DNA of 64,000 nucleotides from NCBI RefSeq assembly GCF_964213995.1, contig NW_027590137.1, positions 744,001 to 808,000 of the forward strand. The letters run 5' to 3'. This DNA comes from Mustelus asterias (Eukaryota). Positions 15,448 through 62,719 of the stretch are shown here, piece after piece. The translations under genes and the position numbers were made by a program. Within the stretch, counting starts at the first letter, position 1. Every line of letters starts with the position of its first letter. The notes beneath the pieces were generated by a model. That model ran no database searches. It saw only the letters and a list, made by a program, of their open reading frames with translations, and had not been told where the DNA came from.

Positions 15448-15591
15448 TTACATAGAAACATGATGTGGAGATGCCGGCGTTGGACTGGGGTGAACACAGT
15501 AAGAAGTCTCACAACACCAGGTTAAAGTCCAACAGGTTTATTTTGTATTTGCTACCAAGTAAACCTGGTGAGACTTCTTACATAGAAACAT
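15448..15591. mobile_element. Short Penelope-like terminus with internal inversion, 14-bp TSD
   Basis: TTACATAGAAACAT at 15448-15461 and 15578-15591 flanking GATGTGGAGATGCCGGCGTTGGACTGGGG... and a reversed piece. Confidence 0.75.
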
Positions 15592-32582: not shown

Positions 32583-32888
32583 TATCACCATCTGCTGGCG
32601 ACGTGCACTTACGGCAGGCGCTGGCATCTGTGAGTCTCGGGGAAGTTCAGTCACTGGACGGTTGGAACTGGCATCCGGTTGATGAAGTGCCAAAATTGAA
32701 TAACATTGTTCATTCCCTGTTGCAAACTTTCATTCCTAACATTGGAATGAAAGTTTGCAACAGGTTCTTGGGTGGCGCGTTCGCCCATTTGTCACCAGGC
32801 ACCGTATAAGAATTTTGTTCCCCATTCCCCATGGGAGATATTGTCTGGAGTTGCAGTTCGGGATTATTGTGTGCATTAGTATTTAAAA

Positions 32889-34908: not shown

Positions 34909-35280
34909 ATGTTCCGAATTCACAGACTCTGTTTGCTGTGTTTCGCTCTGACCTGCACTGGGGTGACTGGAGCAGATGAGGTAATGCAGCTTCCTCGGCG
35001 GAAGGTTGTTAGTGAAGGGGGAACCGTATCCATGAACTGCACCACGACCACTACACTTAACAACATATATTGGTACAGACAGTCCCCGAATCAGCCACCC
35101 CAGTACCTGGTGATGGCCACAAGAGAAACCGATCAACGCGGGAGGATCACTGCCTCAATCGGCGGAGGCAGCAAATTCAGCGCCCTGACTGTGAGAGACG
35201 CCGGAGTTACAGACACTGCCACCTATCTCTGCGCCGTGAGCCACAGTGTGACAAACATAGGGTGAGCCCATACAAAAACC
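34909..35280 (+). CDS. TCR alpha-like V segment, intact, leader apparently fused in frame, perfect 23-RSS (V2)
   Basis: MFRIHRLCLLCFALTCTGVTGA-DEVMQ..VSMNC..IYWYRQ..DTATYLCAVS; CACAGTG 35242-35248, 23 nt, ACAAAAACC 35272-35280. Confidence 0.92.
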
Positions 35281-38567: not shown

Positions 38568-39616
38568 CAATAACTCACTCGACATGGGGACAGTGGGCAC
38601 AACAGCCCATAGACTTTAGAAATGAGTGTGATGCAAGTAAAATCGACAGAAAATGTTCTTGGTCCGAGTAATATGATGGGATTGAAAATGCATGTTATTA
38701 TTTCTAATAATTGAACTTGCAGATTAACACTCAAAAGAAACATGTAAATCATTCTTTGATACATTGGCTGATTGAAATTTGGTTGTCATAATTGTTTTAT
38801 TGTCAGCGAGTTTTCAAAACTTCCGTTCGTTCGAAATGAACAATTCAAGCATATCAGTTGTGGATTTATGAGTTTATTAAAGCAAAATTCATCCATCTAC
38901 ACAGCTGAACATGCACTGTGCTAATGGCGCAGGCGCACCTGAAAACTGAGATAAATGATTTGTATCAATACTAAACAGCAAATGTAGCAAAATCAAAATG
39001 ACAAAGGCAGCAGATGTCGCAATAACATCAAAGTAATAAAACACATAATAAACTGCAACAATAAAAATCCTGCAATATGATGCAGCAACATAAACAAAAT
39101 TGAGAATCGCTGTATCACAGATGACGCCCCAAGACCTCATCTTTCGCTAAAACTTGCAGAACCGTCAGTTCCCCTGTCACAGGTGACAGCTGGAGCATTT
39201 TGACACCACCACAAACTACAGCGCAAGAGCCGATGTGTGAATTACGGAAGTTCTAAACCAGAAACTTTGGGATCTATCCCCAATTCAGGGCATTGTGGCA
39301 ACAGACATTATCCAGTCACAGAGGTTGATGATCTGTTTGTAAATTCTTCCAATAAGCCGAATGACAAATGATAAGAACAGGAGAGTTGCCTGGCCAGCCT
39401 TACTGCAGGAGGTGATGGAAACCACTGCAGGACTTTGCCAGGCATAATCATGGAGCAATCAAATGGAATTCTTTGATAAACCAGCTCCACCTCAAGTAAG
39501 AAAACATATCTTGTAATTAATAGTTTGAGAAATCACCAGGATTTCAGGTTTCATTTCAGACTCACTCTGATCATAATGTTTTCCTAACGCTCTGTTATGT
39601 TGAGCGAGCCTCTGAC

Positions 39617-40537
39617 AGTTTTTGTACAGGTTCAGCCCAGCTCTGTGTCTCTGTGGGTCTCAGTGCGCAGTAATAAACCCCGGAGTCTGCCAGCTCTGTT
39701 TTAGACACTTTCAGCGGGACGGTGCGGGTTGTATCATTGAGCTCCGCTAAAAAACGGTCCCCTGAGGATCTCCCTGTGTTTCCGCTGTATTTATTTGTCT
39801 GCAGCAGGAACTCCATGAATCCGCTGGGATACTGACGGTAACCAGAACAAGTATAGAGTGTTCGCACTTGTAGCTGAATAATTACAGAACAACCCTACAT
39901 TGACTCCTTCAGTGACGGCGACTGCAGGTGTCTGTGAAACAGAATCTCCTCGACAATGCCCTGTAAAAACACAAAGGAATATTAAGTTACACAATGCGTC
40001 TGCATTCTGTTTCCCCCAGGACTTGCTCGTCATCCTGAACATAACCTCAGAGAGAAATCAGACAGCTGAACAGAAGCATATTTTTCACAGTTCAGTGGCT
40101 GGAACGGGAAGGTGCTGGCGGTGATTAAATAAAACTTCCAACATAAACATTCTGTGCTTTCTAACGAGATTAGTTCCTCGCCTTCATTCCCTGTGACTGG
40201 AACGGGAAATTGCTCACTGTCTGTGTGTTTGAAAGTCTAGTGATTGTCAAATCATTTTTTGTTATCAGAGAAGTTTGAATCTCGGCCTAACTTCGAAAAT
40301 GTGTCGACTGCCATCAAACAGTGTTCAGTGTTGAAATCAGCGAGATCCGAATGACTATTCGAAGTTGGGATCAAGCCAATCCTCCGATCACCTACCCTCA
40401 CCCCCTTCCACTGAACGAACTGCCCGATATAATATAGTGTGAGGGAAACATGTGAAACACAGTGTTGAGCAACTTGTGAACTTACCAGTTAAAAGAGCTG
40501 CTGCTGTGAGGAATAAATATAGGGTAACAGGAGACAT
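39617..40537 (-). pseudogene. TCR alpha/delta-like V with leader exon (40537-40486), V exon (39960-39656), single +1 frameshift, 23-RSS (V5)
   Basis: MSPVTLYLFLTAAALLT then G-GTAAG donor; GHCRGDSVSQTP..LFCNYS..LFW[+T]YRQ..ADSGVYYCALR; CACAGAG 39655-39649, 23 nt, ACAAAAACT 39625-39617; TGAGTCA at 40616-40622 upstream. Confidence 0.88.
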
Positions 40538-40817
40538 GTTTGCAGAGAGCTCGCAGTGGATGTGACCAGAAAGGGTTGAAGCTGAAATTGTTTTCGTCAA
40601 GAGTTGGGAAGAAGTTGAGTCATATCCGGGCCCCTATTGATTGGTTCATTGCTGCCAACCTCATCATATGACATCCAATTGGCTTCAAATAATAAAATTC
40701 AGTCTCACCAATTCCAATTCAGAATTCTCGGAAGAAGATATTTGGTGAGGTATGTAAATCAACAAGCCCCAAAATGTTCTCAATGACCCCATTCCAAACC
40801 TGATTGAACAGAATCTG

Positions 40818-41338
40818 ATGTGGAGATGCCGGCGTTGGACTGGGGTGAACACAGTAAGAAGTCTCACAACACCAGGTTAAAGTCCAACAGGTTTATTTGG
40901 TAGCAAACACCATAAGCTTTCGGAGCGCTGCTCCTTCGTCAGATGGAGTGGAAATGTGCTCTCAAACAGTGCACAGAGACACAAAATCAAGTTACAGAAT
41001 ACTGAATTAGAATGCGAATCCCTACAGCCAGCCAGGTCTTAAAGATGCAGACAATGCAGATGCAGAAATAGGCAGAGCCCCCAGGATGGGTAATTAGCAG
41101 TAAAAAAAAATTAGCAGACAAGTCCCTCCACCCACATTGTCTCCATCTTTAAGATCTGGTTGGCTGTAGGGATTCGCATTCTAATCAGTATTCTGTAACT
41201 TGATTTTGTGTCTCTGTGCACTGTTTGAGAGCACATTTCCACTCCATCTGACGAAGGAGCAGCGCTCCGAAAGCTTATGGTGTTTGCTACCAAATAAACC
41301 CATTGGACTTTAACCTGGTGTTGTGAGACTTCTTACTG
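40818..41338. mobile_element. Penelope-like inverted-repeat insertion with 13-bp TSD and captured central sequence
   Basis: TGAACAGAATCTG at 40805-40817 and 41339-41351; arms ~40818-41056 and ~41125-41340 are inverted copies. Confidence 0.88.
41242..41282 (+). ncRNA. Minimal type I hammerhead ribozyme motif (mirror copy on minus strand 40908-40948)
   Basis: CTCCAT-CTGACGA-a-GGAGC agc GCTCC-GAAA-gc-TT-ATGGTG. Confidence 0.7.
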
Positions 41339-41627
41339 TGAACAGAATCTGCCAGCAGAGGGCACCAAATCCCTGCATGCTCATTAGAAGGTCACGTGGG
41401 TCCAACGCCGAAGCCAAAAGGGATGTGTTCCTGAGTGAGGTCACAATGGGGCTGGTCCCTGCATTGCGTCTCAATCATCCCATTCCCATTCACTGAGATA
41501 CTCAGTCAGACAGACTGGCGGCGCTATGTGACAGTAAGTGAAGAATTATGTTCATTAACACAGTTTAGCAGATTGACGACAATAGATTGTAATCTGATTT
41601 AATATAGTTCACGGTATATATGTATAT

Positions 41628-41977
41628 ATCATAGAAATCATAGAAACCCTACAGTACAGAAAGAGGCCATTCGGCCCATCGAGTCTGCACCGACCACAAT
41701 CCCACCCAGGCCCTACCCCCATATCCCTACATATTTTACCCACTAATCCCTCTAATCTACACATCTCAGGACACTAAGGGCAATTTTTAACCTGGCCAAT
41801 CAACCTAACCCGCACATCATTGGACAGTGGGAGGAAACCGGAGCACCCGGAGGAAACCCACGCAGACACGAGGAGAATGTGCAAACTCCACACAGACAGT
41901 GACCCAAGCCGGGAATCGAACCCAGGTCCCTGGAGCTGTGAAGCAGCAGTGCTAACCACTGTGCGACCGTGCCGCCC
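41628..41977 (-). mobile_element. HE1-type SINE
   Basis: Full match, (ATCATAGAA)n tail. Confidence 0.92.
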
Positions 41978-42078
41978 ATGTATATATATATGGACAGGTT
42001 GTAAAATGGAAACTTACGCACACATACAGATATATCGTTCCTCTTTAACCTTGGACTCTTATTTATCTACTTTTACAG

Positions 42079-42376
42079 GCGGAATATGTGCAGTAACTCA
42101 GTCTCTGGTGCCGTTAACTGTGCAAGAAGAAGGTTTAGCGCAGTTCGATTGTGAATAATCAGACCAACTATGCAATTGCATCAGCAGAAATAGGCAGAGC
42201 ACCCAGGATGGGTAATTAGCACTAAAAAAAATTAGCACTGGGAAAGGGAAAATCTCAGGAACATTTGTGATGGCTGTTGACGAGTCTGGTTCCTCAGTAT
42301 AGGCGGCATGAGCGCGGAGGATGGAACGGCCGATTACTATGCTGTGAGGCACAGCGTCAGGAAAAGCACATAAACC
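42079..42376 (+). pseudogene. Decayed TCR V pseudogene (V6)
   Basis: TTTACAG acceptor, AVTQSLVPLTVQEEGLAQFDCE*, ..GATTACTATGCTGTGAGG, CACAGCG 42350-42356, 11 nt, ACATAAACC 42368-42376. Confidence 0.72.
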
Positions 42377-43479
42377 TCAGCGCATTCAGTCAAATGTTTT
42401 TGGGGCCTTTACCTGAGACATTAGTTTCTTTCTAGCTTTACAGAGTCAGGTTTTTATATCAAACGTTTGGATTGCTGTCCCTGCCCTTGTTGAAATCAAT
42501 GGGGAGCCTGTCTGGGAAATCAGAATTCATAACTGTACCCCAAGTGATATCAGCTCAGTAAATAACTTGGAACATAGTGTGCCGGCCGAGGTGGAGAATG
42601 CCGACAGGCGTGCAGTAATGCCGCTCATTATGGGCTGTTCATCCTGCCAGTTAACTGAAAAGGATCCCAAGGCAGTGAGTCTGTGTCACTGGGTTCTATA
42701 TCAAAAACAAAATGTATAAAAGTCTGGGATTGAATTTAACCAATGAAGTGAAAAATTGTCCTTTAGAAAGCAAATCACCGAACAGCACAACCAGGACATC
42801 AGAAAGGTCCTTGGACAGCAACTGTGCCTGGTGTAGATTCGGACAGGCAATAACTCACATCTAACAGTATGTTGTTCCTTCTCGTCTGAAGTTAAATAAG
42901 GAATGCAGATCAGGAATATATTTCACTTACTGGGAGACTGGAGAAAGTTTTCCAGGGACAGCTTTATATAAATGCCCAGTTCTCTGATGAAGCACAGGCT
43001 ACAAACATGCCAGGACTGTTCTTCTGCCGGTTTTTATACGACCGATATTGATCTTCACTGCACAGAAATAGGTGGCGGTGTCTGTGATCTTGGCGTCGCT
43101 AACATTTAGAACGTTTCGAGTCCAGATGACCCTTCGTTAAATTGTTGTTGTGAGCTGCATTATTTGTGAGAATGAGAGTGACGGAGTGGGATTGATCCAC
43201 AGCCAGTGTCACCAGTTTGAGGACAGGAGGGGAGAGAACCTAGAGAGAAGACTAGAAACTGAATCGAGCAATGAGCAGAGAGGGAGAAGTGTGTGTGGGG
43301 CACAGAATTGTTTGCTCTGAATTTCTGTCCTGTACTTACACTGATAACTTCTGTAAACTCCTTTTGCAGGGAGTTCGAGGGAGAGAAGTTCCAGATGGGA
43401 AAGTCAGAACAAACATCATATCAAAATCTGACAGTCACTTGATTCATCAGGACCTGAATATCATCAACCTCTGAATGTG

Positions 43480-44704
43480 GAAGGAGAAATGTTTGTCTGT
43501 TCTGTCTGTGGGGAAAGATTTTAAACATCAGTGTAACTGAAAAAGCACCGAGACACACATACACCCGAGTGAGAGTGTTCCAGTGAACTGACTGTGGAAA
43601 GAACTTTAACCATTAAACAGCCTGAAAAAACATCATACCATTCAATGTGGAGAAATGTACAGGTGTTCTGTGTGAGGCTCCAACTGATCATCCAACCTGC
43701 AGAGACAAATGAATAATTGAATCGCGGAGAAAGCGTGGACATATGGTGACTGTGGAATGGGATTAATTTTCCCTTTTGAACTGGGACATGATCAATGCAG
43801 GGACCTTTCACCTTCTCCATGTGTGGAGATGGATTTACTCAGTTATCCAGTCTGTCGACACACCAGCCAGTTCATACCCAGGAGAGGCTGTTCAGATGTT
43901 CCACATGTGGGAAGGAATTTGCTGACTCATGTGACCTCCTGGCTCATGAGCAAGTTCACACTGAGGAGAGCGCATTCACCAGGCCTGTGTGTGGCAACGA
44001 ATTCACTCAGTCATCCCAGCTCACTGAACATCAACATGTACACAGTGATCAGAGACTTTTTAAATGTTCTGACTGTGAGAAGAGCTTTAAAAGCAAGAAG
44101 TATCTGCAAATACACCAGCGACTTCACACTGGGGAGAAACTGTTCATCTTGTGTGTGAGTGGGAAGAGATTTGTTCAGTCATTTGACTTGCTAATTCACC
44201 AGCGACATCACATTGGGGTGAGGCCATTCACTTGCTGTGTGTGTGAAAAGGGATTCACTCAACCACACCAGCGAGTTCACACTGAGGAGAGGCCATTTAT
44301 TTGCTGTGTGTGTGGGAAGGGATTCACTCAGACATCCCACCTTGTGACACACCAGCAGGTTCACACTGGGAACAGACCATTCATCCTCTGAGAGTGTGAA
44401 GGGATTCATTCAGTCATACCAGCTTCTGTTGCACCAGCGAATTCACATTGGAGAGAGGCCATTCACCTGCTCCATGTGTGCTAAGGGATTCATTCAGTCA
44501 TCAGACAGTCTGGTGCACCAACGAGTTCATACTAAGGAGAGGCTATTCACCTGCTCTGTATGTGGGAAAAGATTCTCTCAGTCTTCCCAACTCCTGAAAC
44601 ACCAGCGAGTTCACACTGGGGAGAGGCCATTCACCTGCTCTGAGTGTGGGAAGGGATTCACTCAGTCATCACACCTTGTGACACACCAGCGAGTTCACAA
44701 ATGA
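43480..44704 (+). pseudogene. C2H2 zinc-finger pseudogene (ZNF-G)
   Basis: Fingers split across ORFs 43795-44391 and 44396-44704 by stop/frameshift; several broken fingers. Confidence 0.85.
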
Positions 44705-45394
44705 CTGCAAGAATTAGATTCTGCTTTTAATCATATTGAAGACTGAATGTGTGGGTTAATCCTGATGTAAGAAAGCCACTCTCTTCCATGGTTTAGAGCT
44801 CCTAGATATGGAACAGAACCTCCTTTACAACTATGTTTAGAGTCAGGAAGAATGCTGGAAACATGATGTCAAATCAGAGATTGGTGTAAAACTGGGATCT
44901 GTTCCTGACAAAGTAAAACGGCAGGTTTAACTTTACCGTCTGAAAATAGTACGAAGATTGAAAATGTTTGTGTGAAAATCCTGCATCTACCAATGTAAGG
45001 TAATGATAACATCAAGTTACATTTCTATCTGGAACCTTTGGCCATCTCTCACCTTCCATTGACTTCAGTGATAGAAACTGACTGTTGAAATCTGTCAACA
45101 TTAGAAAACTATTTATAAATAATTTGAGGGTTTTTTACAGTTGGGATCTTTCTCTGTTCTCTCCACTCAAGATATTAGATACCAGACTTTCTCCTGTGAA
45201 TATCCAGCTGGAGTATTGGGCCCTGATATGTTCCTTTGTTCATCTTATTGACTCTAAATATTGAACCTTGTGGTTTCAGCCGCTGATAATCAAGCTCCCA
45301 ACAACAGATTGTCTTTTACTGACTTTATTAACAGCGCTGCAATAATACAGACAGAGTAATTCCTCACATGGTTCCAGTACTCAGTGAAGTACTT

Positions 45395-45778
45395 TTTAAA
45401 AATTCATTCATGTGATGTGGATGTCACTGGCTTGGCCAGCATTTAGTACCCACCCTAATTACCCTTGAACTGAGCGGATTGCTCGGCCATTGCAGAGGGC
45501 ATTTAAGAGTCAACCACATTGCTGTGGATCTGGAGTCAAAGATGTGCCAGACCAGGTAAGGACGGCAGATTTCCTTCCCTAAACACATTCGTGAACCAGA
45601 TGGTTTTTTTTACAACAATCGACAACAGTTTCATGGTCATCAGACTTTTAACTCCAGATTTTTATTGAATTCAGATTTCACCACCTGCCGTGATGGGATT
45701 CGAACCCTGGTCCCTGAAGTATTACCTGGGACTCTTGATTACTAGTCCAGCGACAATATCACTCTGCCACTGCCTGCC
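45395..45778 (-). mobile_element. Second tRNA-derived SINE family
   Basis: Reverse complement homologue of 17111-17460. Confidence 0.8.
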
Positions 45779-45855
45779 TTTTATATGAAATTTATATGCA
45801 TCTCCGAGCCTGTAATGGTGTATTGGTCTGTAATTTTAACAATCTAATTCAATAT

Positions 45856-48645
45856 TAAGACCATAAGACCATAAGACATAGGAGCGGAAGTAAGGCCATT
45901 CGGCCCATCGAGTCCACTCCACCATTCAATCATGGTTGATTTCAACTCCATTTACCCGCTCTCTCCCCATAGCCCTTAATTCCTCGAGAAATCAAGAATT
46001 TATCAATTTCTGTCTTGAAGACGCTCAACGTCTCAGCCTCCACAGCCCTCTGTGGCAATGAATTCCACAGACCTACCACTCTCTGGCTGAAGAAATTTCT
46101 CCTCATCTCTGTTCTAAAGTGACTCCCTTTTATTCTAAGGCTGTGCCCCCGCGTCCTAGTCTCCCCTGCTAATGGAAACAACTTCCCTACGTCCATCCTA
46201 TCTAAGCCGTTCATTATCTTGTAAGTTTCTATTAGATCTCCCCTCAACCTCCTAAACTCCAATGAATATAATCCCACGATCCTCAGACGTTCATCGTATG
46301 TCAGGCCTACCATTCCTGGGATCATCCGTGTGAATCTCCGCTGGACCCGCTCCAGTGCCAGTATGTCCTTCCTGAGGTGTGGGGCCCAAAATTGTTCACA
46401 GTACTCCAAATGGGGCCTAACCAGTGCTTTATAAAGCCTCAGAAGTACATCCCTGCTTTTGTATTCCAAGCCTCTTGAGATAAATGACAACATTACATTT
46501 GCTTTCTTAATTACAGACTCAACCTGCAAGTTTACCTTTAGAGAATCCTGGACTCGGACTCCCAAGTCCCTTTGCACTTTAGCATTATGAATTTTGTCAC
46601 CGTTTAGAAAATAGTCCATGCCTCTATTCTTTTTTCCAAAGTGCAAGACCTCGCACTTGCCCACGTTGAATTTCATCAGCCACTTCTTGGACCACTCTCC
46701 TAAACTGTCTAAATCTTTCTACAGCCTCGCCACCTCCTCAATACTACCTGCCCCTCCACCTATCTTTGTATCATCGGCAAACTTGGCCAGAATGCCCCCA
46801 GTCCCGTCATCTAGATCGTTAATATATAAAGAGAACAGCTGTGGCCCCAACACTGAACCCTGCGGGACACCACTTGTCACCGGTTGCCATTCTGAGAAAG
46901 AACCTTTTATCCCAACTCTCTGCCTTCTGTCTGACAGCCAATCATCAATCCATGTTAGTACCTTGCCTCGAATACCATGGGCCCTTATTTTACTCAGCAG
47001 TCTCCCGTGAGGCACCTTGTCAAAGGCCTTTTGGAAGTCAAGATAGATAACATCCATTGGCTCTCCTTGGTCTAACCTATTTATTATCTCTTCAAAGAAC
47101 TCTAACAGGTTTGTCAGGCACGACCTCCCCTTACTAAATCCATGCTGACTTGTCCTAATCCGACCCTGCACTTCCAAGAATTTAGAAATCTCATCCTTAA
47201 TGATGGATTCTAGAATTTTGCCAACAACTGAGGTTAGGCTAATTGGCCTATAATTTTCCATCTTTTTTCTTGTTCCCTTCTTGAACAGCGATTTTCCAAT
47301 CCTCTGGGACTTTCCCTGACTCCAGTGACTTTTGAAAGATCATAACTAACGCCTCCACTATTTCTTCAGCTATCTCCTTTAGAACTCTAGGATGTAGCCC
47401 ATCTGGGCCCGGAGATTTATCAATTTTCAGACCTTTTAGTTTCTCTAGCACTTTCTCCTTTGTGATGGCAACCATATTCAACTCTGCCCCGACTTTCCTG
47501 AATTGTTGGGATATTACTCATGTCTTCTACTGTGAAGACTGACGCAAAGTACTTATTAAGTTCCTCAGCTATTTCCTTGTCTCCCATCACTAGATTACCA
47601 GCGTCATTTTGGAGCGGCCCAATGTCTACTTTTGCCTCCCGTTTGTTTTTAATGTATTTAAAGAAACTTTTACTATCATTCCTAATGTTACTGGCTAGCC
47701 TACCTTCATATTTGATCCTCTCCTTCCTTATTTCTCTCTTTGTTATCCTCTGTTTGTTTTTATAGCCTTCCCAATCTTCTGACTTCCCACTACTCTTTGC
47801 CACATTATAGGATCTCTCTTTTGCCTTGATGCATTCCCTGACTTCCTTTGTCAGCCATGGCTGCCTAATCCCCCCTCTGATAACCTTTCTTTTGTTTGGG
47901 ATGAACCTCTGCACTGTGTCCTCAATTACTCCCAGAAACTCCTGCCATTGCTGTTCTACTGTCTTTCCCACTAGGCTCTGCTTCCAGTCGATTTTTGTCA
48001 GTTCCTCCCTCATGCGCCTGTAATTACCTTTATTTAACTGTAGAACCTTCACATCTGATTCTGCCTTCCTTCTTTCAAATTGCAGACTGAATTATGATCA
48101 CTGCTTCCTAAGTGTTCCCTTACTTTAAGATCTTTTATCACGTCTGGCTCATTACATAACACTAAGTCCAGAATAGCCTGTTCCCTCGTGGGCTCCATCA
48201 CAAGCTGTTCCAAAAAGCCATCCTGTAAACATTCAATGAATTCCCTTTCTTTGGGTCCACTGGCAACATTATTTACCCAGTCCACCTGCATATTGAAATC
48301 CCCCATGATCACTGTGACCTTGCCTTTCTGACATGCCCTTTCTATTTCGTGGTGCATTTTGTGCCCCTGGTCCTGACCACTGTCAGGAGGCCTGTACATA
48401 ACTCCCATTATGGTTTTTTTGCCTTTGTGGTTCCTCAACTCTACCCACACAGACTCCACATCGTCTGACCCTATGTCGTTTAGTGCTATTGATTTAATTT
48501 CATTTCTAATTAACAAGGCAACCCCGCCCCCTCTACCCACCTCTCTGTCTTTTCGATAGGTTGTGAATCCCTGGATGTTTAACTGCCAGTCCTGAACCCC
48601 CTGCAACCACGTCTCTGTGATGCCTACCACATCATACCTGCCAGT
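45856..48645 (-). mobile_element. CR1 LINE, nearly complete ORF2 (APE endonuclease + RT) broken by indels
   Basis: [67 protein letters not shown]; (TAAGACCA)n tail. Confidence 0.96.
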
Positions 48646-49639
48646 TTGTTAAGGTTCATCTTTCTGGGGAGTTAACCTTCCCTTGAGTCTTTGATTAAAG
48701 GCATTTTTGGAAGTTTAAAAACAGGATCACAAGAACGCTTAAGTAATTAATTTTGGTTATTGTTGTTGTAAAGCACATGCTAAGTTTCTCTGTTTGTGTA
48801 TGGATGATATTTGTGGGTTGAACGCTTCAAGCTTTGAGTTTTTCTGTCTGTGATTTAAATCAAACATTTAAAAAAGGAAGTGTAATTAATAAAATGTTTT
48901 TTTTCAAAAGTTATGAACTTGGAGCCATATTTACTGGACAGAGACACCTTTCCAGGATATTTTACTAAACATGCAGGAATTTTAATCCGGATAAAACTCA
49001 CATGTGAGAATGAGAGTTTTAATTTGTAATGGTTATTTAAAATATGGTACTTATGAAACGACTCTGACCAATCCTGTGTTGGATTGATCTTGGGTTAAAC
49101 TTCCTGTCAGGTCCAAAGATTTATTCCTGACACAACACAATGAAAAGGAAAATTCTGGAATTGGATACTGAAGAAAAGAGTTTAAAAGGAGAGATTATTA
49201 AATAGAAATGTTCCCAGACCGTGTGGTCATTAGATTGAAACAAAGGAAGGGTGCTGACATCCATTTGAAAACTTTTAATCCACCCCTTTCAAACTCAGTC
49301 TATGTACAAAGAAAACGCCAAGGATGGTAGATAAGGGGGTCTGGAAAACATCATGATGGTGGCATCTATCTGTTCATGAGATGCTCACAAAGCCCCATGA
49401 TGCCCAGATACTAATTTCATTGCACCTATATGTAATGTATGTAATCTATCACCATTCTGATTGGATTGTGTCCAGCCGGGATGGGCTGAGTAACTGGATA
49501 AGAATTGATGATATTCTGTGTTGGGTGGAGTTGCGCATGGTCAGCCCCTGTGGCTTCTCCCCGCTGGCGTAACTCAATGAACTGTTTGTCGATTGAATCA
49601 GGTTTGAGTGTTGAATGATTCTTCTGAGTTCATTCCCCC

Positions 49640-49800
49640 CCAACACACTGGGTACATTACCACTTCATCCTCGGGAGTGGCCTGATAGGCCGTGGTCCAG
49701 ACTACATGTGGCCCTTGGGGGGCCTTTCATGAATCACATGTTTTTGCTTGTTGTAGATGCACATTCAAAATGCTTGGAAGCACAGATCATGAGTAATATT
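49640..49800 (+). mobile_element. Gypsy-type LTR retrotransposon integrase remnant
   Basis: PLHPREWPDRPWSRLHVALGGPFMNHMFLLVVDAHSK resembles the Gypsy integrase core start (PLHPWEWP..PWSRLHVDFAGPF..VVDAHSKW). Confidence 0.7.
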
Positions 49801-50475
49801 ACAGGGCAATTAGGACTAGTTTAGTGGTAAAAACTGGGCGGCATGGACAAGTTGGGCCGAAGGGCCTGTTTCCATGCTGTAAACCTCTACGACTCTAACT
49901 ACCTTTTTTGTGCCCTGAAGTTCCCACAATTGGAAAGCAGCCAGATTAGTTAAATAGACAGCCTTAATTGTGAGACAATTAAATAATAAATGATTCATTA
50001 ATACATATGTTATAAAGGCTGGAAATGTAAATTTGAACACAAGTTTATAACTTAGAATTATAAACACATTAAGAATGGTTAAAATGCTGTGGGAATTATC
50101 AGATGTTCCCTTCCCATGCTGACAGAATAAAGAAAGATGAAAGGACTTGTTAACCTTGACTGGAGGGAATGAATCGGCTCCTGTTCAAGATGTCTCAACA
50201 TTGAATGACTGATGTGAACCAATTATCGGTCGACCCAATTATCAGGCTACCCCAAGCTAAGAGATATCGTTTGAGAGAAAGATATGTCTTAAAATTAAGA
50301 CAATGTGTGCAATTAGCTAAAAACCAAATCAATTTCATTATTGACAAGTTAAAGACCAATTCACTAATTCCTAACAATTAGCTGAGGATGGCTTTCTACA
50401 TTCTTAAAGTATAAAAAAGGGGATTCGAGAAACCAATTCAGTAAAAGTGTTTAAAAGTTAACTTTTTTTATAGTT

Positions 50476-50757
50476 TGTTTATTAGTGTCACACATAGACT
50501 TACATTAACATTGCAATGAAGTTACTCTGAAAATCCCCCAGTCGCCACAGTCTGGCGCCTGTTTGGGTAAACTGAGGGAGAATTTAGCATAGCCAATGTA
50601 CCCAACCAGCACGTCTTTCGGACTTTGGGAGGAAACTGGAGCACCCGGAGGAAACCTGCACAGACACGGGGAGAATGGGCAAACTCCGCACAGCCAGTGA
50701 CCCAAGCCGGGACTCGAACCATCTGCTGTGAGGCAGCAGTGCCTCACACTGTGCCCT
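50476..50757 (-). mobile_element. HE1-like SINE, alternative tail
   Basis: Reverse complement of head, central motif and tail. Confidence 0.85.
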
Positions 50758-51589
50758 ACAGAGAGACGTTGGGAGCTGTTAGTTTTACAAGTTATCCACG
50801 TTTTCAGAGCCATCACTTCATGTCCTGGTTTGAGAAGGATGGAGAAGTTAAAGTTCAGCTTTCCTCCTTTTGCTGTTGATCCATACTTTGCTTTTTTATC
50901 TTTCTGTCTTGTTACATTTTTAATGGTTAATAAACTTTCTGAATTCACCGTTTAAAATACCCTTTCTTGCCATATGGTTAAGTCACTGGAACCTGGTGTG
51001 ATTTACGATTAGGGAAGTTATTGTAAACAAGAGAACCCCCATAAATCTTAGTTCAAACAAATCAAAGTTCTTACAAATGGAATGTTATCCTTTATTCTGA
51101 GAGATATTGAACATAGAAGTAAAGATGTTCTGCTTCAGTTGTGCAGGGCGTTGCTGAGATTGCACCTTGAACACAGGGTACAATTTTGTCTCCTATTAAA
51201 CAAAGGATATAAATGCATTGGAAGCAGTTCAGAGGAGGTTCACAAGATTGATTCCCAATCCAGTAGTGTGAAACATTAACACTGTTTCTCTCTCCACAGA
51301 TGCTGCAAGACGTGTTGTGTTTTTCCAGTTCTTTCTGTATTTATTTTAGATCTACCTGTAGTGGGAGGAAAAACACTATTTACTATCCAGGATAAAATAA
51401 ATGTCCTTTCAGTGGAAATGTGCTCTCCCAGGCTCAAAGAGCATCAACCCACTGGAAGCAAAGTCGTGTGACCGGCCAGTCCAACAGAAAGAAACCCTCC
51501 GACCCTCCCACTTCACCTACTGTCAGAATGAACATGGTTCAGTCCTGGATGTGATCAACAGCAGCAATAACAGCAGAATCCAACCCCTG

Positions 51590-52172
51590 TCATCACTTGT
51601 GAACTCGCTGGTGTCTCCGCAGGCTGGATGGCTGAGTGAATCCCTTCCCACACACGGAGCAGGTGAACGGTCTCTCCCTGGTGTGAACTCGCTGGTGTTC
51701 CTGCAGGTGTTCACGCAGAGAGTGATGGGAGTGTGGAATGAGCTGCCGGATAAAGTGGTAAATGCGGGGTCACTTTTAACATTTAAGAAAAACTTGGACG
51801 GGTTTATGGATGAGAGGGGTGTGGAGGGACATGGTCCAAGTGCAGGTCAGTGGGACGAGGCAAAAAATGGTTCGGCACAGACAAGAAGGGCCAAAAGGCC
51901 CGTTTCTGAGCTGTGATTTTCTATGGTTCTAAGGTGGGATGACGTTCTAAATCTCTCTGTGCAGTGCTAGCAGCTGAACGGTCTCTCCTCAGTGTGAATG
52001 TGCTGGTGGATCATCACACCCCGAGAACTTTTGAAACCACTTCCACAATCCGAGCATTTAAAGGGGATCTCATTGGCGTGAGTGAGATTGTGGCTCAGCA
52101 GGCGAGATGAATGAGTGAATTCCTTCCCACACACAGAGCAGGTGAACTGTCTCTCCCTGGTGTGAACTCACG
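51590..52172 (-). pseudogene. C2H2 zinc-finger 3' remnant interrupted by a CR1 fragment (~51707-51932, +) (ZNF-H)
   Basis: Finger codons on minus strand ending HK*; inserted [15 protein letters not shown]1 piece. Confidence 0.75.
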
Positions 52173-52174
52173 GT

Positions 52175-52950
52175 GTGATCACACGGGTTGGATTCTGCTG
52201 TTATTGTTTCTGCTCTCAATTACATCCAGGACTGCATTTTGTTCATTCTCACAGTTGGTCAATGGGGAGGGTCGGAGGGTTTCTTTCTGCTGGACTGGCT
52301 GGTCTCACAAAGTTTGCCTCCAGTGGGCTGATGCTCTTTGAGACTTGTTGCGAATACCTGGTTTCAGATTTCACAAGGATCACAGAGTGACAGGGTGTTA
52401 GGAAGTTCAGAGATATTTAGTCAGCATTTCTGTCTAATACCCCTCAAACGCCCATCCAATTTCCTTTGTAATTGTTTATTGTCTCCACTTCCTCCACCCT
52501 CGTAGGCAGCGAGTTCCAGGTCATTACCATTCGCTGCATCAAAATATTCTTCCTCACATCCCCCCCCCGCCCCCCCCTGCATCTCTGACCTGAAACTTGA
52601 AATCTGTGTCCCCCCTCGTCCTTGTCCAATCAGCTAATGGGAACAGCTTTTCTTTGTCCACCTTATCTAAACCTGTCAGAATCTTGTCCACCTCGATCAA
52701 ATCTCCCCTCAACCTCCTTTACTCCAAGGAGAACAACCCCAGCCTGACATTGACAATAAAGAACAAACTAACAGAATATGTTAATACCTGAAATCAAATG
52801 GGAATGTTTAATTTCTGTTTGAAAGATATTGTAAATATATTGTCCTGGACAATAAAGAAATTGGAATAATTCACCTTGGGTGTGGTTGAATGAAATATAT
52901 CAATCTGGTATCCATCTACAGTCTAGTGAAAGGCTGGAATGTGTAGCTGG
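52175..52950 (+). repeat. Third copy of the ZNF-A/B 3' flank
   Basis: Direct match to ~2735-3490 including embedded CR1 relic. Confidence 0.85.
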
Positions 52951-53869
52951 GATGAATAAGTTGATCACTTTCTCTGGGAGATATTTGCATCTTTGTCCAT
53001 GAACTTTGTTTTTTAAAAATCCACATTTGAAAGCCCGGCCACTACATGAAATATCAGCACCATAACAGGGGGAGATAAGAAAGACAGACACTCACTTTGA
53101 TCTTTTCATCAGCACATCTGAGAGTTAAGAATGTGTGACATGATTTTGGGATACCGGAGTGAGTGTGCAGATGTGATTTGTTACATGTGAAAAATAGCAA
53201 GCCTAAATTCATGGTGAGATGGAGTGAAGAGCGGGTCCCAAACACACACAGCTACTTGAGACACAGCAGGAGATGAAATGGCTAATGTGGCCAGGGCATT
53301 GAGACAACATTGTGACATCATCAAGGCATTGACACACACTCCAGAGAGAAACTGAGTTCAAAACAATCAGGATCCAATTAAACACAATACACATGGACAC
53401 ACAGTGAGGAAAATTACAGTAAAATGGATAATCTATTCATCGAGAAGGAAAGAAGCTGGTGCAGAATGTAGTGTTACAGTCAGCGAGGGTGCAGAAAAAG
53501 ATCAACTGAATGCGAGGTAGGTCCATTCAAAGGTCTGATGGCAGCAGGGAGGAAGCTGCTCTTGAGTCAGTTGGTACGTGACCTCAGACTTTTGTGTCTT
53601 TTTCCCAACGGAAGAAGGTGGAAGAGAGAATGTCCGGGGTGGGCAGGGTCCTTAATTATGCTGGCTGCTTTGCCGAGGCAGCGGGAAGTGGATGGGAGGA
53701 GGGAGTGCCGAATGTAGTATTACAGTCATAGCAAGGGTGCAAAGAAAGATCAACTGAATGTGAGGTAGGTCCATTCAAAGGTCTGATGGCAGCAGTGAAG
53801 AAGCTGCTCTTGAGTCCATTAATATGTGTCCTGACCCTTTGTAGTTTATTGTGGTCTTGGGCAGAGCAG

Positions 53870-54195
53870 AATCATAGAAATCATAGAATCATAGAAACCC
53901 GACAGCACAGAAAGAGGCCATTCGGCCCATTGAGTCTGCACCGACCACAATCCCACCCAGGCCCTACCCCCATACCCTTACATATTTTACCCACTAATCC
54001 CTCTAACCTACGCATCTCAGGACACTAAGGACAATTTTAGCATGGCCAATCAACCTAACCCGCACATCTTTTGGACTGTGGGAGGAAACCGGAGCACCCG
54101 GAGGAAACCCACGCAGACACGAGGAGAATGTGCAAACTCCACACAGACAGTGACCCAAGCCGGGAATCAAACCCAGGTCGCTGGAGCTGTGAAGC
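53870..54195 (-). mobile_element. HE1-type SINE, 5'-truncated
   Basis: Central motif and tail match. Confidence 0.88.
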
Positions 54196-54778
54196 CATAC
54201 CAAGCTGTGAAGCCATACCAAGCTGTGATACAACCAGAGAGAATGCTTTCTCTGGTGCATCTGTAAACGTTGGTGAGAGTCATAGCTGATGTGCCAAATT
54301 TCCTTAGTCTTCTGAGAAAGTAGAGGCATTGGTGGGCTTTCTTAACTATAGTGTCAGCATGGGGGAACCAGGACAGGTTGTTGGTGATCTGGACACCTAA
54401 AAACATGAAGTTCTCGACCATTTCTGTATCGTCCCTGTTGACGTAGATAGGGGCATGTTCTCCACTATGCTTCTTGAAATCGATGACAATCTCCTTCATT
54501 TTGTTGACATTGAGGGAGAGATTATTGTTGTCGCACCAGTTCAGCAGGTTCTTTATCTCTTTCCTGCACTCCATCTTGTCATTGTCTGAGATCCGACCCA
54601 CTACAGTGGTGCCATCAGCAAATTTGAAAATTGAGTTGGAGGAGAATTTGGCCACACTGTCATAGGTGTATAAGGAATATAGGAGGGGCTGAGGACACGG
54701 CCTTGTGGGGCACCAGTGTTGAGGATGATCATGGTAGGAGGTGTTGCCTATCCTTACTGACTGTGGTCTGTGGTTAGG
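54196..54778 (-). mobile_element. Rex1/Babar-type non-LTR retrotransposon RT fragment (further 3' pieces ~53440-53820)
   Basis: PLLYSLYTYD..KFADGTTVVG..WCDNNNLSLNVNK..KKAHQCLYFLRRLRKF..ESILSGCITAWYG. Confidence 0.85.
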
Positions 54779-54789
54779 AAGACTCGGAT

Positions 54790-55835
54790 TCACGGTGACT
54801 TAGCCACTTGGATTCAGAATTGACTTGCCCATAGAAGTCAGAGAGTAATGATGCAAGGATGTTTTCTGGCTGGAGGTCCGTGACCAGTGGTGTTCCACAG
54901 GGATCTGTTCTGGGACTTCTGCTATTTGTGGTATATATATCAATGACTTGGCTGAAAATGTGGGTGTGTGGGTTAGTAAGTTTGCAGACGACACAAAGCT
55001 AGATGGAGTTGTAGATAATGTAGAAGGTTGTCAAAGGATACAGTGGGATGTAGATCAGCTGCAGATATGGGCAGAGAAATGGCAGATGGAGTTTAATCCA
55101 GACAAGTGTGAGGTGCTGCACTTTGGGAGATCAAATGTTCAGGGTAAGTATCCAGTTAATGGCAGACCCCTGAACAGCATTGATGTACAGTGGGATCTTG
55201 CGGTTCAAGTCCATAGCTCCCAAAGGTTGCCTTTATTGAGTACAAGAGTCAGGATGTCATATTGCAGCTTTATAAAAGTTAGGTTAGGCCACACTTAGAA
55301 TATTGCATTCAGTTCTGTTCGCTACATTACAGGAAGGATGTGGAGAATTTGGAGAGTATGCAGAAGAGGTTTACCAGGACGCTGCCTGGATTAGAGGGTA
55401 TGAGCTATGAGGACAGGCTGGACAAACTAGGGTTGTTTACTCTGACGCGGTGGAGGCTGAGGGGAAACCTGATAGAAGTCTATAAAATGATAAAAGACAT
55501 AGATTGGGTTGACAGTCAGAATCTTTTTCACAGAGTTGAAATGTCTATTACTAGGGGGCATGCACTTCAGGAGAGACGGGGAAAGTTCAAAGGAGATGTG
55601 AGGGGTAAGTTTTTTACACACAGAGTGGTAGGTGTCTGGAACGCACTGCTAGGAGTGGCGGTGGAGGCAGATACGATTGGGGTGTTCAATGGGCTTTTAG
55701 ATAAGCACATGAATTTGTAAGGAATAGAGGAATATGGACCAAGGGCAGGCAGAAGGGATTAGTTTAATTTGGCATCATGTTCGACACAACATGGTGGGCT
55801 GAAGGGTCTGTTCCTGTGCTGTATTGTTCTATTTG
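54790..55835 (+). mobile_element. CR1 LINE 3' fragment
   Basis: [41 protein letters not shown]. Confidence 0.9.
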
Positions 55836-55887
55836 TGATCTCCATTTAGAAAAAGGAGTGAGGCAGCAGTGCTAACCACTGGCACTG

Positions 55888-56188
55888 TGGCACGGTGGTC
55901 AGCACTGCTGCCTCACAGCTCCAGGGACCCAGGTTCAATTCCGCCCTCGGTTCTCTGTCTGCGCGGAGTCTGCACGTTCTCTCTGTGTCTGCGTGCGTTT
56001 CTTCCGGGTGCTCCGGTTTTCTCCCACATTCCAAAAATGTGTGAGTTAGGTTGATTGGCCGTGCTAAATTAACACTAATGTTTGTGGGGATTAACAGGGT
56101 AAATATGTGGGGTTGTGGGAATAGGGCCTGGGTGGGATTGTGGTCGAGGTAGACTCGATGGGCCGAATGGCCTTCTATGATTCTATGA
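55888..56188 (+). mobile_element. HE1-type SINE
   Basis: Head, central motif, TTCTATGATTCTATG tail. Confidence 0.85.
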
Positions 56189-56772
56189 AATAGAGGCACT
56201 GGAGAAAGGGCAAGAAAGATTCACAAGAATAATCCCAGAACTGTAATCACTTGTGAAAGCGCTGGTGTTTCACCAAGTTTGCTGACTGAGTGAATCCCTT
56301 CCCACAGTCAGAGCAGGTGAACAGCCTCTGCCCAGTGTGAACTCGCTGTGTACCTGCAGGTTGGATGACTGAGTGAATCCCTTCCCACGTACAGAGCAGC
56401 TGAATGGCCTCTCTCCAGTGTGAACTCACTGGTGGATCATCATTTCCCGAGAGCTTTTAAAGCCGCTCCCACAGTTGGAGAATTTAAAGGATCTCTGCAG
56501 AGTGTGAGTGATGTTCTGTCTCTGCAGTCTGGATAACCGAGTAAATCCTTTCACACTCACCGAGCAGGTAAATGGTCTCTCCCCGGTGTGAACTCACTGG
56601 TGTTCCTGCAGGTTGGATGACCATTTAAATCTCTTTGTGCAGTGAGAGTGTGCTGGTGGGACACCAATTAGCTTTTGAAGCCACGCCCACACACAGAGCA
56701 GCTGAACGGCCTCTCCCCTGTGTAAATGCACTGGTTGATCATCAGTTCCTGAGAGGTTTTGAGTCCGGCCTC

Positions 56773-58230
56773 TCAGTCAGAGCATTTAAAGGGTCTCTCC
56801 TTGGTGTGAGTAACATTGTGTCTCAGCAAGCTGGATGACTGAGTGAATCCCTTTCCACACACAGAGCAGGGGAATGGTTTCTCCCCAGTGTGAACTCGCT
56901 GGTGTATCCGCAGTGTGGATAACCTTTTAAATCTCTTTGTGCAGTGAGAGCAGCTGAACGGTCTCTCCCCAGTGTGAACTCGCTGGTGAATCAACAGTTC
57001 ATGAGAGCTTTCAAAACCAGTCCCACAGTCAGTGCATTGAAAGGCTCTCTCCTGGGTGTGAGTGCTTTTGTGCTTCAGCAGGCTGGACAACTGAGTGAAT
57101 CCTTTCCCACACACAGAGCAGGGGAATGGTTTCTCCTTAGTGTGAACTCGGTGGTGTTTCCGCAGATTGGATGAACTTTTAAATCTCTTTGTGCAGTGAG
57201 AGCAGCTGAACGGTCTCTCCTCGGTGTGAATGCGCTGGTGAATCATCAGATCCGCAGCACTTTTGAAGCCACGCCCACAGTCAGAGCATTTAAAAGGTCT
57301 CTCATTGCTGTGAGTGACTTTGTGTGTTGTCAGACCAGATGACTGAGTGAATCCCTTCCCACACACAGAGCAAGTGAATGGCCTCTTCCCAGTGTGAACT
57401 CGCTGGTGTACCCGCAGATTGGATGAGGTTTTGAACCTCTTTGTGCAGTGAGAGCAGCTGAACGGTCTCTCCTCACTGTGAATGCGCTGGTGGATATTCA
57501 GATCCGCAGCACTTTTGAAGCCGCTCCCACAGTCAGAGCATTTAAAGGGTCTCTCATTGCTGTGAGTGACTTTGTGATTCTGTAGGTGGGATGGCTGAGT
57601 GAATCCCTTTCCACACACAGAGCAGGTGAATGGTCTCTCCCCAGTGTGAACTCGCTGGTGTGTCTGCAGGTGGGATGACCGATTGAATCCCTTCCCACAC
57701 ACAGAGCAGGTGAACAGTCCCTCTGCAGTGTGAAAGCGTTTGTGGGACATCAGTTCACCAGAGCTTTTGAAGCCTCTCCCACAGTCAGAGCATTTAAAGG
57801 GTCTCTCCTGGGTGTGGGTGACTTTGTGTTTCAGCAGGCTGGATAATTGAGTGAATCCCTTCCCACACACAGAGCAGGTGAACGGTCTCTCCCCGGTGTG
57901 AACTCGCTGGTGTTGCCGCAGGTTGGATGATGTTCTGAATGTCTTTGTGCAGTGAGAGCAGCTGAACGGTCTCTCCTCAGTGTGAATGCGCTCGTGCTCT
58001 CTCAGATCCGCAGCACGTTTGAAATTGCTTCCACAGTCAGAGCATTTAAAGGGTCTCTCCTGGCTGTGAGTGACTTTATGTCTGAGCAGGTGGGATAACT
58101 GAATGTATCCCTTCCCACACACAGAGCAGGTGAATGGCCTCTCCCCGGTGTGACTGCGTCGATGGATTTCCAGGTCACAGGGGGCTCTGTATCTCTTCCC
58201 ACAGTCCCCACATTTCCACCGTTTCTCCAT
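56773..58230 (-). CDS. Tandem C2H2 zinc-finger protein, 17 fingers, decayed fingers continue to ~56247 (ZNF-I)
   Basis: MEKRWKCGDC start; stop inside finger 18 (CSD*); 3-finger periodicity. Confidence 0.88.
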   Translation of the reverse strand: MEKRWKCGDCGKRYRAPCDLEIHRRSHTGERPFTCSVCGKGYIQLSHLLRHKVTHSQERPFKCSDCGSNFKRAADLREHERIHTEERPFSCSHCTKTFRTSSNLRQHQRVHTGERPFTCSVCGKGFTQLSSLLKHKVTHTQERPFKCSDCGRGFKSSGELMSHKRFHTAEGLFTCSVCGKGFNRSSHLQTHQRVHTGERPFTCSVCGKGFTQPSHLQNHKVTHSNERPFKCSDCGSGFKSAADLNIHQRIHSEERPFSCSHCTKRFKTSSNLRVHQRVHTGKRPFTCSVCGKGFTQSSGLTTHKVTHSNERPFKCSDCGRGFKSAADLMIHQRIHTEERPFSCSHCTKRFKSSSNLRKHHRVHTKEKPFPCSVCGKGFTQLSSLLKHKSTHTQERAFQCTDCGTGFESSHELLIHQRVHTGERPFSCSHCTKRFKRLSTLRIHQRVHTGEKPFPCSVCGKGFTQSSSLLRHNVTHTKERPFKCSD

Positions 58231-58280
58231 GGTTCGGGTGTCCTTGTGACTCTCCAGGTTAAACAGTCAGTTAAATCTCA

Positions 58281-58370
<90 letters not shown>

Positions 58371-58827
58371 TCACTAGAACATTCTCACTCGGGTGTGTCT
58401 GCGCCTTGGTGCTTTTCCAGTCACATTGATATTAAAGACCTGTTTTCGCAGACGGAACAGAGAAACATTTCTCCTTCTAGATTCAAAGGCCGATAATATT
58501 CAGGTCCGATGAATTGAGTGAGGGTGTCAGATGCTGGTGTGATGTTTGTTTCAAGATTTTGGTCTGTTAATCCTCACCTTCTCATATCCTGTAAACGAGT
58601 TTGAAAAATTCAACAATGTCAGCACAGGATAGAAATTCAGAACAGACAATTCTAGTTTCTATGGAACATTCTTTCCTCTCTCATTCCCCAAAAGCTGTGA
58701 ATCTCCATCCCACACACTCTCCCTCCATTCTCACTCTGCTGTATCTAATATTCACCCTCCCAATTCTCCTGAAGGTGCTGATTGAGGCTGATTGACAGAT
58801 CCATGCTCACTGCTTCCTGTCCTGGGT

Positions 58828-58938
58828 AGTTTAACAACACCAGGTTAAAGTCCAACAGGTTTATTTGGTAGCAAAAGCCCCTAGCTTTCGGAGCCTTAAG
58901 CTCCTTCTTCAGGTGAGTGGGAATTCCTCACCTGAAAG
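58828..58938 (-). mobile_element. Penelope-like terminal fragment with hammerhead motif
   Basis: Minus strand CTGAAGA-a-GGAGC ttaag GCTCC-GAAA-gc-TA at 58877-58920; small terminal inversion. Confidence 0.8.
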
Positions 58939-59079
58939 GGGGAGAAAAGAAAGTGTTTTACTCACAGATGCTGGCCTCTTTTAAGGACTGTTTAACTGTG
59001 TCCATTGCACTACTGAACCCTTTAAAATCACAGAACGAGTTTAACAAAAGCAGTCCAACAGTTACTAACCCACAAGGCC

Positions 59080-59260
59080 TGGGGCTGCGCATGTCCAAGG
59101 GAGAGGGGAAGCTGCGCATGTGCAGTGGGGAGCTCTCCCCCCCCCCCCGCGAACATTCTAAGGTGCTGACCAATGGGAACTCTGGAGGACCGGAAGTTCT
59201 CTGCTCCTCCAGCCAATCAGAGCTCCCACATTGTCTGAATGCGGAAGTGGATAATGGACT
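59080..59260. promoter_or_regulatory. Promoter module between ZNF-I (-) and ZNF-J (+)
   Basis: Two TGCGCATG NRF1-like sites, paired CCAAT boxes with TGGAGGACC..CTCCTCCAGCCAATC similar to 14790-14830, ETS-like CCGGAAGT/GCGGAAGT. Confidence 0.65.
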
Positions 59261-59372
59261 TGTTCAGCTGCTCATTCCTGCCCAGCAAAGCTGCTGCTGC
59301 TTCTCTCTCTGAATGAAGATTGAGACTCAGACAGACTCAAACTCCTCCTGTCGGCACCATCTGTGAGAGTGT

Positions 59373-59445
59373 GGGCCAGTGGTGCAATGGATAACGCGTC
59401 TGGCTACGGATCAGAAGATTCCAGGTTCGACTCCTGGCTGGCTCG
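59373..59445 (+). tRNA. tRNA-Arg (anticodon ACG), two substitutions from the usual vertebrate sequence
   Basis: GGGCCAGTGGTGCAATGGATAACGCGTCTGGCTACGGATCAGAAGATTCCAGGTTCGACTCCTGGCTGGCTCG; ACG at 59406-59408; both changes give G-U pairs. Confidence 0.9.
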
Positions 59446-60491
59446 ATGTCAATTTGAAAAATAGTTTGTGAACTCCTTTTGACCGAAAAGAGGCCAACAT
59501 CTGTGAGTAAAACACTTTCTTTGTTCCCCTTTTGCGTTTCTTTTGCATTCTGGGGGAAATTGAGGATTTGTTGAATTTTTAACTTCCAGGTCACCACTCG
59601 CTGCCTAAATAAAAATCCTCCTCACATTCTTCATGTATCTGTAACCAGGTAATACAGTGTATTACACACAGCATCAGTCAGCTCATTTATGGCCAAATGT
59701 AAAACTTTAACGTGGCTGTCAGCTTGAAGATTAATCATGGATCATTTGCACTTCCACAACCCCCTGAGGCAGCGGCTTCCAGGTAATGACCTTTCTGCAC
59801 CAAAATAAAATTCTTCCCCACTTCCTTCTCCTTCTCCCAATCCAGTTATCCGGTCCCACATATGGCACAGATTTTAATTTCTAGCGTGTAGGCCGGTCGT
59901 TACACGTAGATTTTCAGATCTCTGTGTCCAGTACAGGAAGTAGTCAGTATGGATCCGTTAATCAGCCATAGACTTGGAGGTTGTATACTCAGGAGAGCAG
60001 AGTGAGAATGGGGAGAGAGTGTGTGGGATGGAGATTGACAGCTTTTGGGGAATGAGAGAGGAAAGAATGTTCCATAGAAACTAGAATTGTCTGTTCTGAA
60101 TTTCTATCCTGTACTGACAGTGATGTCTGTTGTAAATTCCTTTCACAGATATCAGGAGATGAGGATTTATAGACAGAAATTTCAAACTAAACATCACATG
60201 AAGATTTGACAGTCATTCGATTTATTAGGACCTGAATATCATCGACCTTTGAATCTAGAAAAGCAATGTTTGTCTGATCTGTTTGCTTAAGGAGATTTTA
60301 AACATCAGTGTGACTGGAACACACCCGAATGAGAGTGTTCCAGTCCAGTGATAGTGGAAAGAGCTTTAACCAGTTACACAGGCTGAAACAACATTGCACC
60401 GTTTACAGTGAAGAGAGATCGTACACGTGTTCTGTGTGGACAAGGATTCAACTGACCATCAAACCTGGAGAGTCACAAGGACACCCGCATC

Positions 60492-62018: not shown

Positions 62019-62719
62019 CTGCTCTGACTGTGGGAATGGTTTCAAAAGCTCTCAGGAACTGATGATCCACCAGTCCATTCACAGCTGCTGTGTGTGGGAA
62101 GAAATTCACCAGTTCATCCCTCCTGCTGAGACACCAGCGAGTTCACAAGTGATGATAGGGGTTGGATTCTGCTGTTATTGCTGCTGTTAATCACATCCAG
62201 GACTGAACCATGTTCATTCTGACAGTTGGTGAAGCGGGAGGGTCGGGGGGTTTCTTTCTGCTGGACTGGCTGGTCTCACAATTTTGCTTCCAGTGGGCTG
62301 ATGCTCTTTGAGCCTGGGAGAGCACATTTCCACTGAAATGACCCACACAAACTGATGAAGAACATTTATTTTATCCTGGACAGTAAATAATGTTTTTCCT
62401 CCCACTACAGGTAGATCTAAAGTAAGTACATTTGTCTCTGTTCCATTGAGTCTACAGCACAGGGCCGGGCCAGTCGGCCCAATTGGTCTGTGTCAGTATT
62501 TATGCTCCACATGAGCCTCCACCCACCGCTCTTCATCTCCCCCCATCAGCATATCCTTCTATTCCTCTCTCCCTCATGTATGTATCCAGCTTCCCCTTCA
62601 ATGTATCCATGATGTTCACCTCAACCACTCGCTGTGGTAGTGAGTTCCACATTCTCACCACTCGCTGGTAAAGAGGTTTCTCACTGAAATCCTGGTGGAT
62701 TATTGAACCCCTTCATAAC

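Follow-up and report, generated by a model that had tools for sequence, protein, structure and literature searches.

The window, the whole 64,000-nucleotide stretch of Mustelus asterias DNA analysed here (contig NW_027590137.1, positions 744,001 to 808,000), carries six TCR-like V segments between positions 32700 and 42380, amid arrays of C2H2 zinc-finger-like genes. Some V segments of this cluster have open frames and a 23-bp RSS (e.g. 34963-35241). An insertion made of two inverted ends of a Penelope-like element (PLE) lies upstream of the pseudogene V6, and a short piece of non-PLE sequence, the filler, is found between the two ends (Table 1).

Table 1. Features of the inverted PLE insertion and of its surroundings, in window positions.
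Feature	Positions	Strand	Basis or remarks
Segmentally duplicated block with insertion, V6 and zinc-finger genes	39549..64000	.	99.1% over 24.5 kb to C71:6571465-6595953
Left TSD copy, 13 bp (first 2 nt ambiguous with PLE end)	40805..40817	+	unduplicated at the L059 empty site
Left arm, 5'-truncated PLE 3' end, antisense on top strand	40818..41056 (about)	-	alignment
PLE 3' tail extension, 32 nt, left arm only	40818..40849	-	arm alignment
9-nt patch repeating left-arm 41043-41051	41058..41066	+	last 5 nt = first 5 nt of V6 match (microhomology)
55-nt filler copied from V6, in V6 orientation	41062..41116	+	sequence match
8-nt patch repeating left-arm 41047-41054	41114..41121	+	first 3 nt = last 3 nt of V6 match
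Right arm, 5'-truncated PLE 3' end, sense, without tail	41123..41340 (about)	+	alignment
Right TSD copy	41339..41351	+	present in 10/10 group-A copies, 0/8 group-B copies
SINE-like interspersed repeat between insertion and V6	41630..41977	+	short AT-rich duplication on both sides
V6, TCR alpha/delta-like V pseudogene exon	42078..42350	+	stop codon, frameshifts, degenerate RSS from 42350
Donor stretch within V6	42184..42237	+	includes 5-nt insertion not in four paralogues

A sequence-only reading of this locus had described a target-site duplication (TSD) around two inverted PLE termini, and this architecture is confirmed. The duplicated sequence is TGAACAGAATCTG. Its first two nucleotides are compatible with the PLE end and its length is therefore 11-13 bp. 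The two arms are arranged head-to-head, with both 3' ends pointing outward. Their central ends are uneven, the left arm being ~17 nt shorter in the arm alignment. The left arm is 97-98% identical to its nearest PLE relatives, and the window copy contains no ORF. The right arm holds a minimal core with a 5-bp stem at 41248-41272, which from its motif may be hammerhead-like (fold z -1.2); an Rfam search for a ribozyme in this arm returned no match. The empty site is represented by a diverged paralogue, L059, with one copy of the TSD sequence. A contig from a related organism, judged from the contig alignment rather than from its letters, starts exactly at 41339 without continuing into the arm, which fits an empty site as well.

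Long relatives of the arms encode a reverse transcriptase (RT) followed by a GIY-YIG-like domain (in L078, RVT_1 with E 3.6e-9 and GIY-YIG with E 4.7e-4, the latter at 20.9 bits and below the 22.6 cut-off). The arms are thus the 3' ends of an EN+ PLE. In a random sample of six 200-kb stretches (1.2 Mb), picked regardless of content, we found 116 PLE pieces and 44 head-to-head pairs, 30 of which are flanked by a TSD of 9-16 bp (mostly 12-14). Given how frequent TSD-flanked inverted pairs are, the outer architecture of the window insertion is ordinary in this genome. It is also that of the EN+ PLEs, for which the available text of PMC8557442 and PMC3846280 names as typical a truncated copy in inverted arrangement, a 30-40-bp tail on one side only and a short TSD: the window insertion has the same head-to-head 5'-truncated pLTR arms, a one-sided tail (32 nt here), a short TSD and the same family of RT plus GIY-YIG. 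A small inverted PLE insertion with a TSD also occurs at window positions 15461-15578. The alignments to the C71 paralogue end at both of its edges, which suggests that this paralogue has an empty site there.

The filler is identical to the donor stretch of V6 at 52 of 55 positions, the differences being two substitutions and an additional A, exactly as first noticed in the sequence-only reading (E value of 6e-19 in a search of the window). The donor lies 833 bp past the TSD, or at ~480 bp if the SINE-like repeat arrived after the insertion. An assembly-wide search (3.68 Gb) with the 55-mer retrieved V6 and fillers only, which bears out V6 as the best source. The next-best V segment reaches only 73%, and another paralogue was rejected as the donor. 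An equally long exact match to the filler was found in 0/100 random 10-kb windows, and the 1.2 Mb of random genome does not contain the filler, its best match there having an E value of 0.05. A PLE library built from this genome, with copies up to ~2.1 kb, contains no match to the filler longer than 9 nt. The claim that the filler lies outside the PLE sequence stands accordingly, and a PLE origin of the filler was rejected. The insert thus matches unique nearby DNA, as is expected of a locally templated insertion.

V6 aligns with V paralogues over its length, and the spacer of its degenerate RSS is shortened. The closest paralogue (73%) is intact, matches the Pfam V-set with an E value of 1.4e-14 and ends in YYCAV. 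An Atlas search with the V sequence returned a top cluster named TVA4, and the neighbours of the paralogue are TRAV-like by name; a PDB search led to antibodies without settling the V chain type. The filler is V framework sequence, collinear with the intact paralogues, and has neither RSS nor leader. Because it is V framework sequence, the direction of copying was from V6 to the filler. Moreover, the filler shares the frameshifting 5-nt insertion of V6, which is missing in four paralogues, and was therefore copied from V6 after the frameshift. The local copying claimed at the outset is thereby upheld.

The filler occurs in at least 18 places of the assembly, always within copies of this insertion. 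Ten of these copies, including that of the window, form group A and comprise the whole insertion with V6 ~1.1 kb away; all 10 near-identical V6 copies lie ~1.1 kb from a filler. The eight copies of group B kept the left flank and the filler, but their right arm ends near 41217 and V6 is gone. Around the insertion the two groups diverge by 3.1%, and copies within each group by ~1.5%. All 18 copies have a common insertion site and left flank. They consequently derive from a single event that was later segmentally duplicated, and 18 independent captures are ruled out. No copy of the insertion devoid of filler was found among the 18. The insertion has spread by segmental duplication and not by remobilisation, as gene capture or transduction would have it. 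The comparison of copies also dates the mismatches. At position 41079 the filler has C, like 4/4 paralogues, while V6 copies have A in 10/10 cases; at position 41100, the C of V6 is present in 8/8 group-B fillers. Both substitutions hence arose after copying, and apart from the length of the A-run the filler originally had the sequence of V6.

That the 55-mer is found in at least 18 places might suggest that it belongs to the PLE family, is a dispersed repeat or results from misassembly. This is extremely improbable, since all 18 places share the insertion site and left flank, neither PLE copies (of up to ~2.1 kb) nor the 1.2 Mb of random DNA contain the 55-mer, sample contigs span the filler and the copies carry nested substitutions. 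Contigs from three samples, all from one study and one of them possibly the assembly's own sample, cross from arm to filler, and two of the three run from arm through filler to arm. Misassembly of the locus, raised as a doubt in the sequence-only reading, is ruled out by these spanning contigs. The 55-mer is not a single-copy sequence, but all of its copies are duplicates of one event in one insertion.

Other rearrangements are visible in the duplicated copies. In group B (e.g. L011, L013, L037) the right arm is cut at the window equivalent of 41217, and in 5/6 copies inspected the cut arm is followed by a ~80-bp unrelated piece and then by a V4-like paralogue. This rearrangement begins inside the inverted PLE and removed V6. 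At G000:C71:6.507-6.596 Mb, two group-A copies in inverted orientation, separated by ~60 kb, are part of a larger palindrome-like arrangement. Segmental amplification has spread parts of the V cluster, in mosaic form, over many contigs, with related loci on C71, C89, C131, C157, C178, C210, C232, C306, C353, C420, C591, C726, C741, C818, C1036 and C1085.

Both junctions of the filler carry short patches derived from the left arm, tied to the V6 match by microhomologies of 3-5 nt. When random 12-nt windows were compared to the 20-nt arm end, an 8-nt match was obtained in 0.3% of cases, in a test chosen post hoc. Among 14 other inverted centres with 7-37 extra bases, exact arm matches of 11-18 nt were detected in five, and none of the 14 resembled its flanking DNA more than random windows did at the 5% level. 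Either a repair polymerase or the RT could have left such patches by template hopping.

To place the filler among other PLE insertions, 78 further inverted centres were compiled: 30 from the random sample, 19 from a set of 29 loci and 29 from a set of 43, the targeted loci being searched with 1.5-kb flanks unless extended. Eight duplicates of the window insertion, nine of another window copy and L254, which consists of two adjacent insertions, were left out of the count. Non-PLE sequence of at least 40 nt was present in 2 of the 78 centres, L214 and L280, and in none of the 30 TSD-flanked random centres. At L280 (G000:C2, ~154,087,500), the centre contains a 132-nt piece of a SINE, matched best by a SINE 1.7 kb upstream (92.4% identity to the local copy vs at most 87.2% to all others). 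L280 is a plausible local capture and a weak candidate at that, the SINE being only 92% like its local match despite the youth of the PLE. L214 contains a full SINE with its best match elsewhere and does not represent a local capture. Of the 78 inverted centres, one is thus a plausible case of a filler from within a few kb, and long local fillers at inverted PLE centres are rare.

Several other candidates were dismissed on inspection. L293 contains a later LINE-like insert with a 98.9% match elsewhere; the long gap on C18 and L266 are further PLE sequence; L256 and C18:25,041,202 were judged by eye to be short tandem or low-complexity sequence; and C1:100,148,304 is an insertion into a tandem duplicate. 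At G000:C8:60011675-60013116, a composite local duplication lies ~0.5 kb upstream of a nearby inverted PLE. It is made of an inverted flank copy joined to a copy of the right arm, TSD and flank of that element, and was rejected as a later local duplication of the PLE end plus flank. A scan of PLE 5' junctions flagged local matches at 4/35 junctions vs 11/600 random positions; only one of the four survived inspection, and we do not claim an enrichment. At G000:C1:100011944-100013769, sequence from ~0.6 kb downstream recurs in inverted orientation behind a PLE 5' junction, as a copy of 496 bp (94%). A closing TSD was looked for and not found, and this is a weak case of local templating. The donors of the 132-nt SINE piece and of the 496-bp copy are repeats, not genes.

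These data lead us to propose that the window filler was probably produced by patching from local DNA while two cDNA-extended ends were being joined. In this scheme, the GIY-YIG endonuclease would cut both strands ~13 nt apart. Both 3' ends would then prime reverse transcription on PLE RNA, one starting at the tail and the other 32 nt further in, yielding two truncated inverted arms. A nascent end would hop from an arm end to V6 and back to an arm end through the 3-5-nt microhomologies, after which the ends would be sealed and the gaps filled, leaving the TSD. The initial steps are close to what is reported for the Poseidon PAc protein in vitro, which in the part of PMC11167929 describing these assays cleaves and extends both strands and starts reverse transcription internally, as proposed here. 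Twin priming of L1, in which both ends prime reverse transcription, and three L1 insertions that include sequence copied from genomic DNA close by are likewise described in the available text of PMC11702581. The recurrence of short arm-templated patches at other PLE centres also speaks in favour of local patching.

Alternatively, the insertion could have formed without filler, its palindrome breaking centrally at a later time and the gap being filled during repair with copies of V6 and of the arm ends. Long inverted repeats are fragile when nearly perfect. The arms do end unevenly at the centre, with the left ~17 nt shorter, and the arm-derived patches could be generic end-joining scars. Nevertheless, such a later repair is unlikely. 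The filler is present in all 18 copies and is older than their 3% divergence, a figure close to the age of the insertion (97-98% identity to relatives). Furthermore, uneven centres with short patches are common elsewhere, which suggests that they form at insertion.

The sequence-only reading had also considered a V transcript as the template. The PLE RT extending the right arm would then have jumped onto a V6 transcript, either nascent or germline, and back. The orientation is suitable, as a bottom strand synthesised from the right arm would have sense V6 RNA as its template. Two-RNA chimeras of L1 have been reported (PMC11702581), and PLEs can mobilise host sequence (PMC3846280), as far as the accessible portions of these papers go. 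Against this, V6 was already frameshifted and is surrounded by zinc-finger genes, and the remaining candidate donors are repeats. In addition, a centre made as one strand from the right arm would need cDNA, either that of the other arm or its own, as the template of the patches, and this template would be DNA. We therefore consider an RNA template quite unlikely. Since a single exon contains the whole donor stretch and extension could have started from either end, the sequence of the filler itself is equally compatible with DNA and RNA templates.

Local patching from DNA can be compared with known modes of end joining. Templated insertions of TMEJ, as presented in the relevant part of PMC11541566, resemble the window centre in its 8-9-nt patches from less than 20 bp of the junction and in the priming and resolving microhomologies; both arm-derived patches are of this kind. 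However, the templates used by Pol theta are most frequent at up to ~20 bp from the break (PMC11541566), whereas the 55-nt piece comes from 0.5-0.8 kb, well outside the reported peak (833 bp past the TSD, ~480 bp minus the SINE). Although the short patches look like Pol theta scars, the distance of the donor, far beyond the ~20-bp peak, keeps us from classing the event as TMEJ. A donor at 0.5-0.8 kb needs resection or strand invasion and points to no single enzyme.

The comparison with L1 is closer in some respects. As in the L1 insertions covered by the available text of PMC11702581, both ends are RT-extended, the TSD is kept, ends are joined through microhomology and local pieces are occasionally included. 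In contrast, the two arms of L1 represent neighbouring segments of the RNA and a minority of insertions are inverted, whereas here both arms are the same 3' end and inversion is very common. The window filler is a further case of a known by-product of retrotransposition, like the L1 insertions with nearby-templated pieces. Among EN+ PLEs, the accessible sections of PMC8557442 and PMC3846280 mention captured host DNA in the case of the Pen1 spacer and between solo pLTRs. The published PLE inversion centres covered by such text are palindromes or overlaps, whereas the window centre is a piece templated from less than 1 kb away. Our literature search, of incomplete coverage, retrieved no paper describing fillers of local origin at the inversion centres of PLEs.

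As a single locus, the insertion is a neutral scar that neither created nor moved a gene. The view of the event as retroelement-mediated copying of immune-gene sequence is correct in that V6 sequence was copied, but overstated as a framing, for the copy is 55 nt of framework from a frameshifted pseudogene. Lacking RSS and leader and coming from a dead gene, the filler adds little from the immune-gene angle, and its relevance for immunity is unlikely. The V/zinc-finger orphon array may be more interesting than the filler; a literature search of incomplete coverage found no paper on shark TCR V orphons in zinc-finger arrays. For the V/zinc-finger block, the filler provides an order of events: frameshift of V6, insertion, split of groups A and B, and amplification.

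The formation of PLE inverted structures is described as unresolved in the text available from PMC8557442. The two arm-derived patches together with the local filler suggest that the inversion was assembled at the target site, and the filler centre supplies a testable junction signature. A broader proposal is that the telomerase-related RT of the element closes the centres by jumping among cDNA, RNA and exposed local DNA or RNA, with two-ended priming being routine for PLEs. We regard this proposal as doubtful. If true, the inverted PLE insertions of this genome would record past template jumping by PLEs in fossil form, and such jumping would be a steady source of short local duplications, those of TCR V sequence included.
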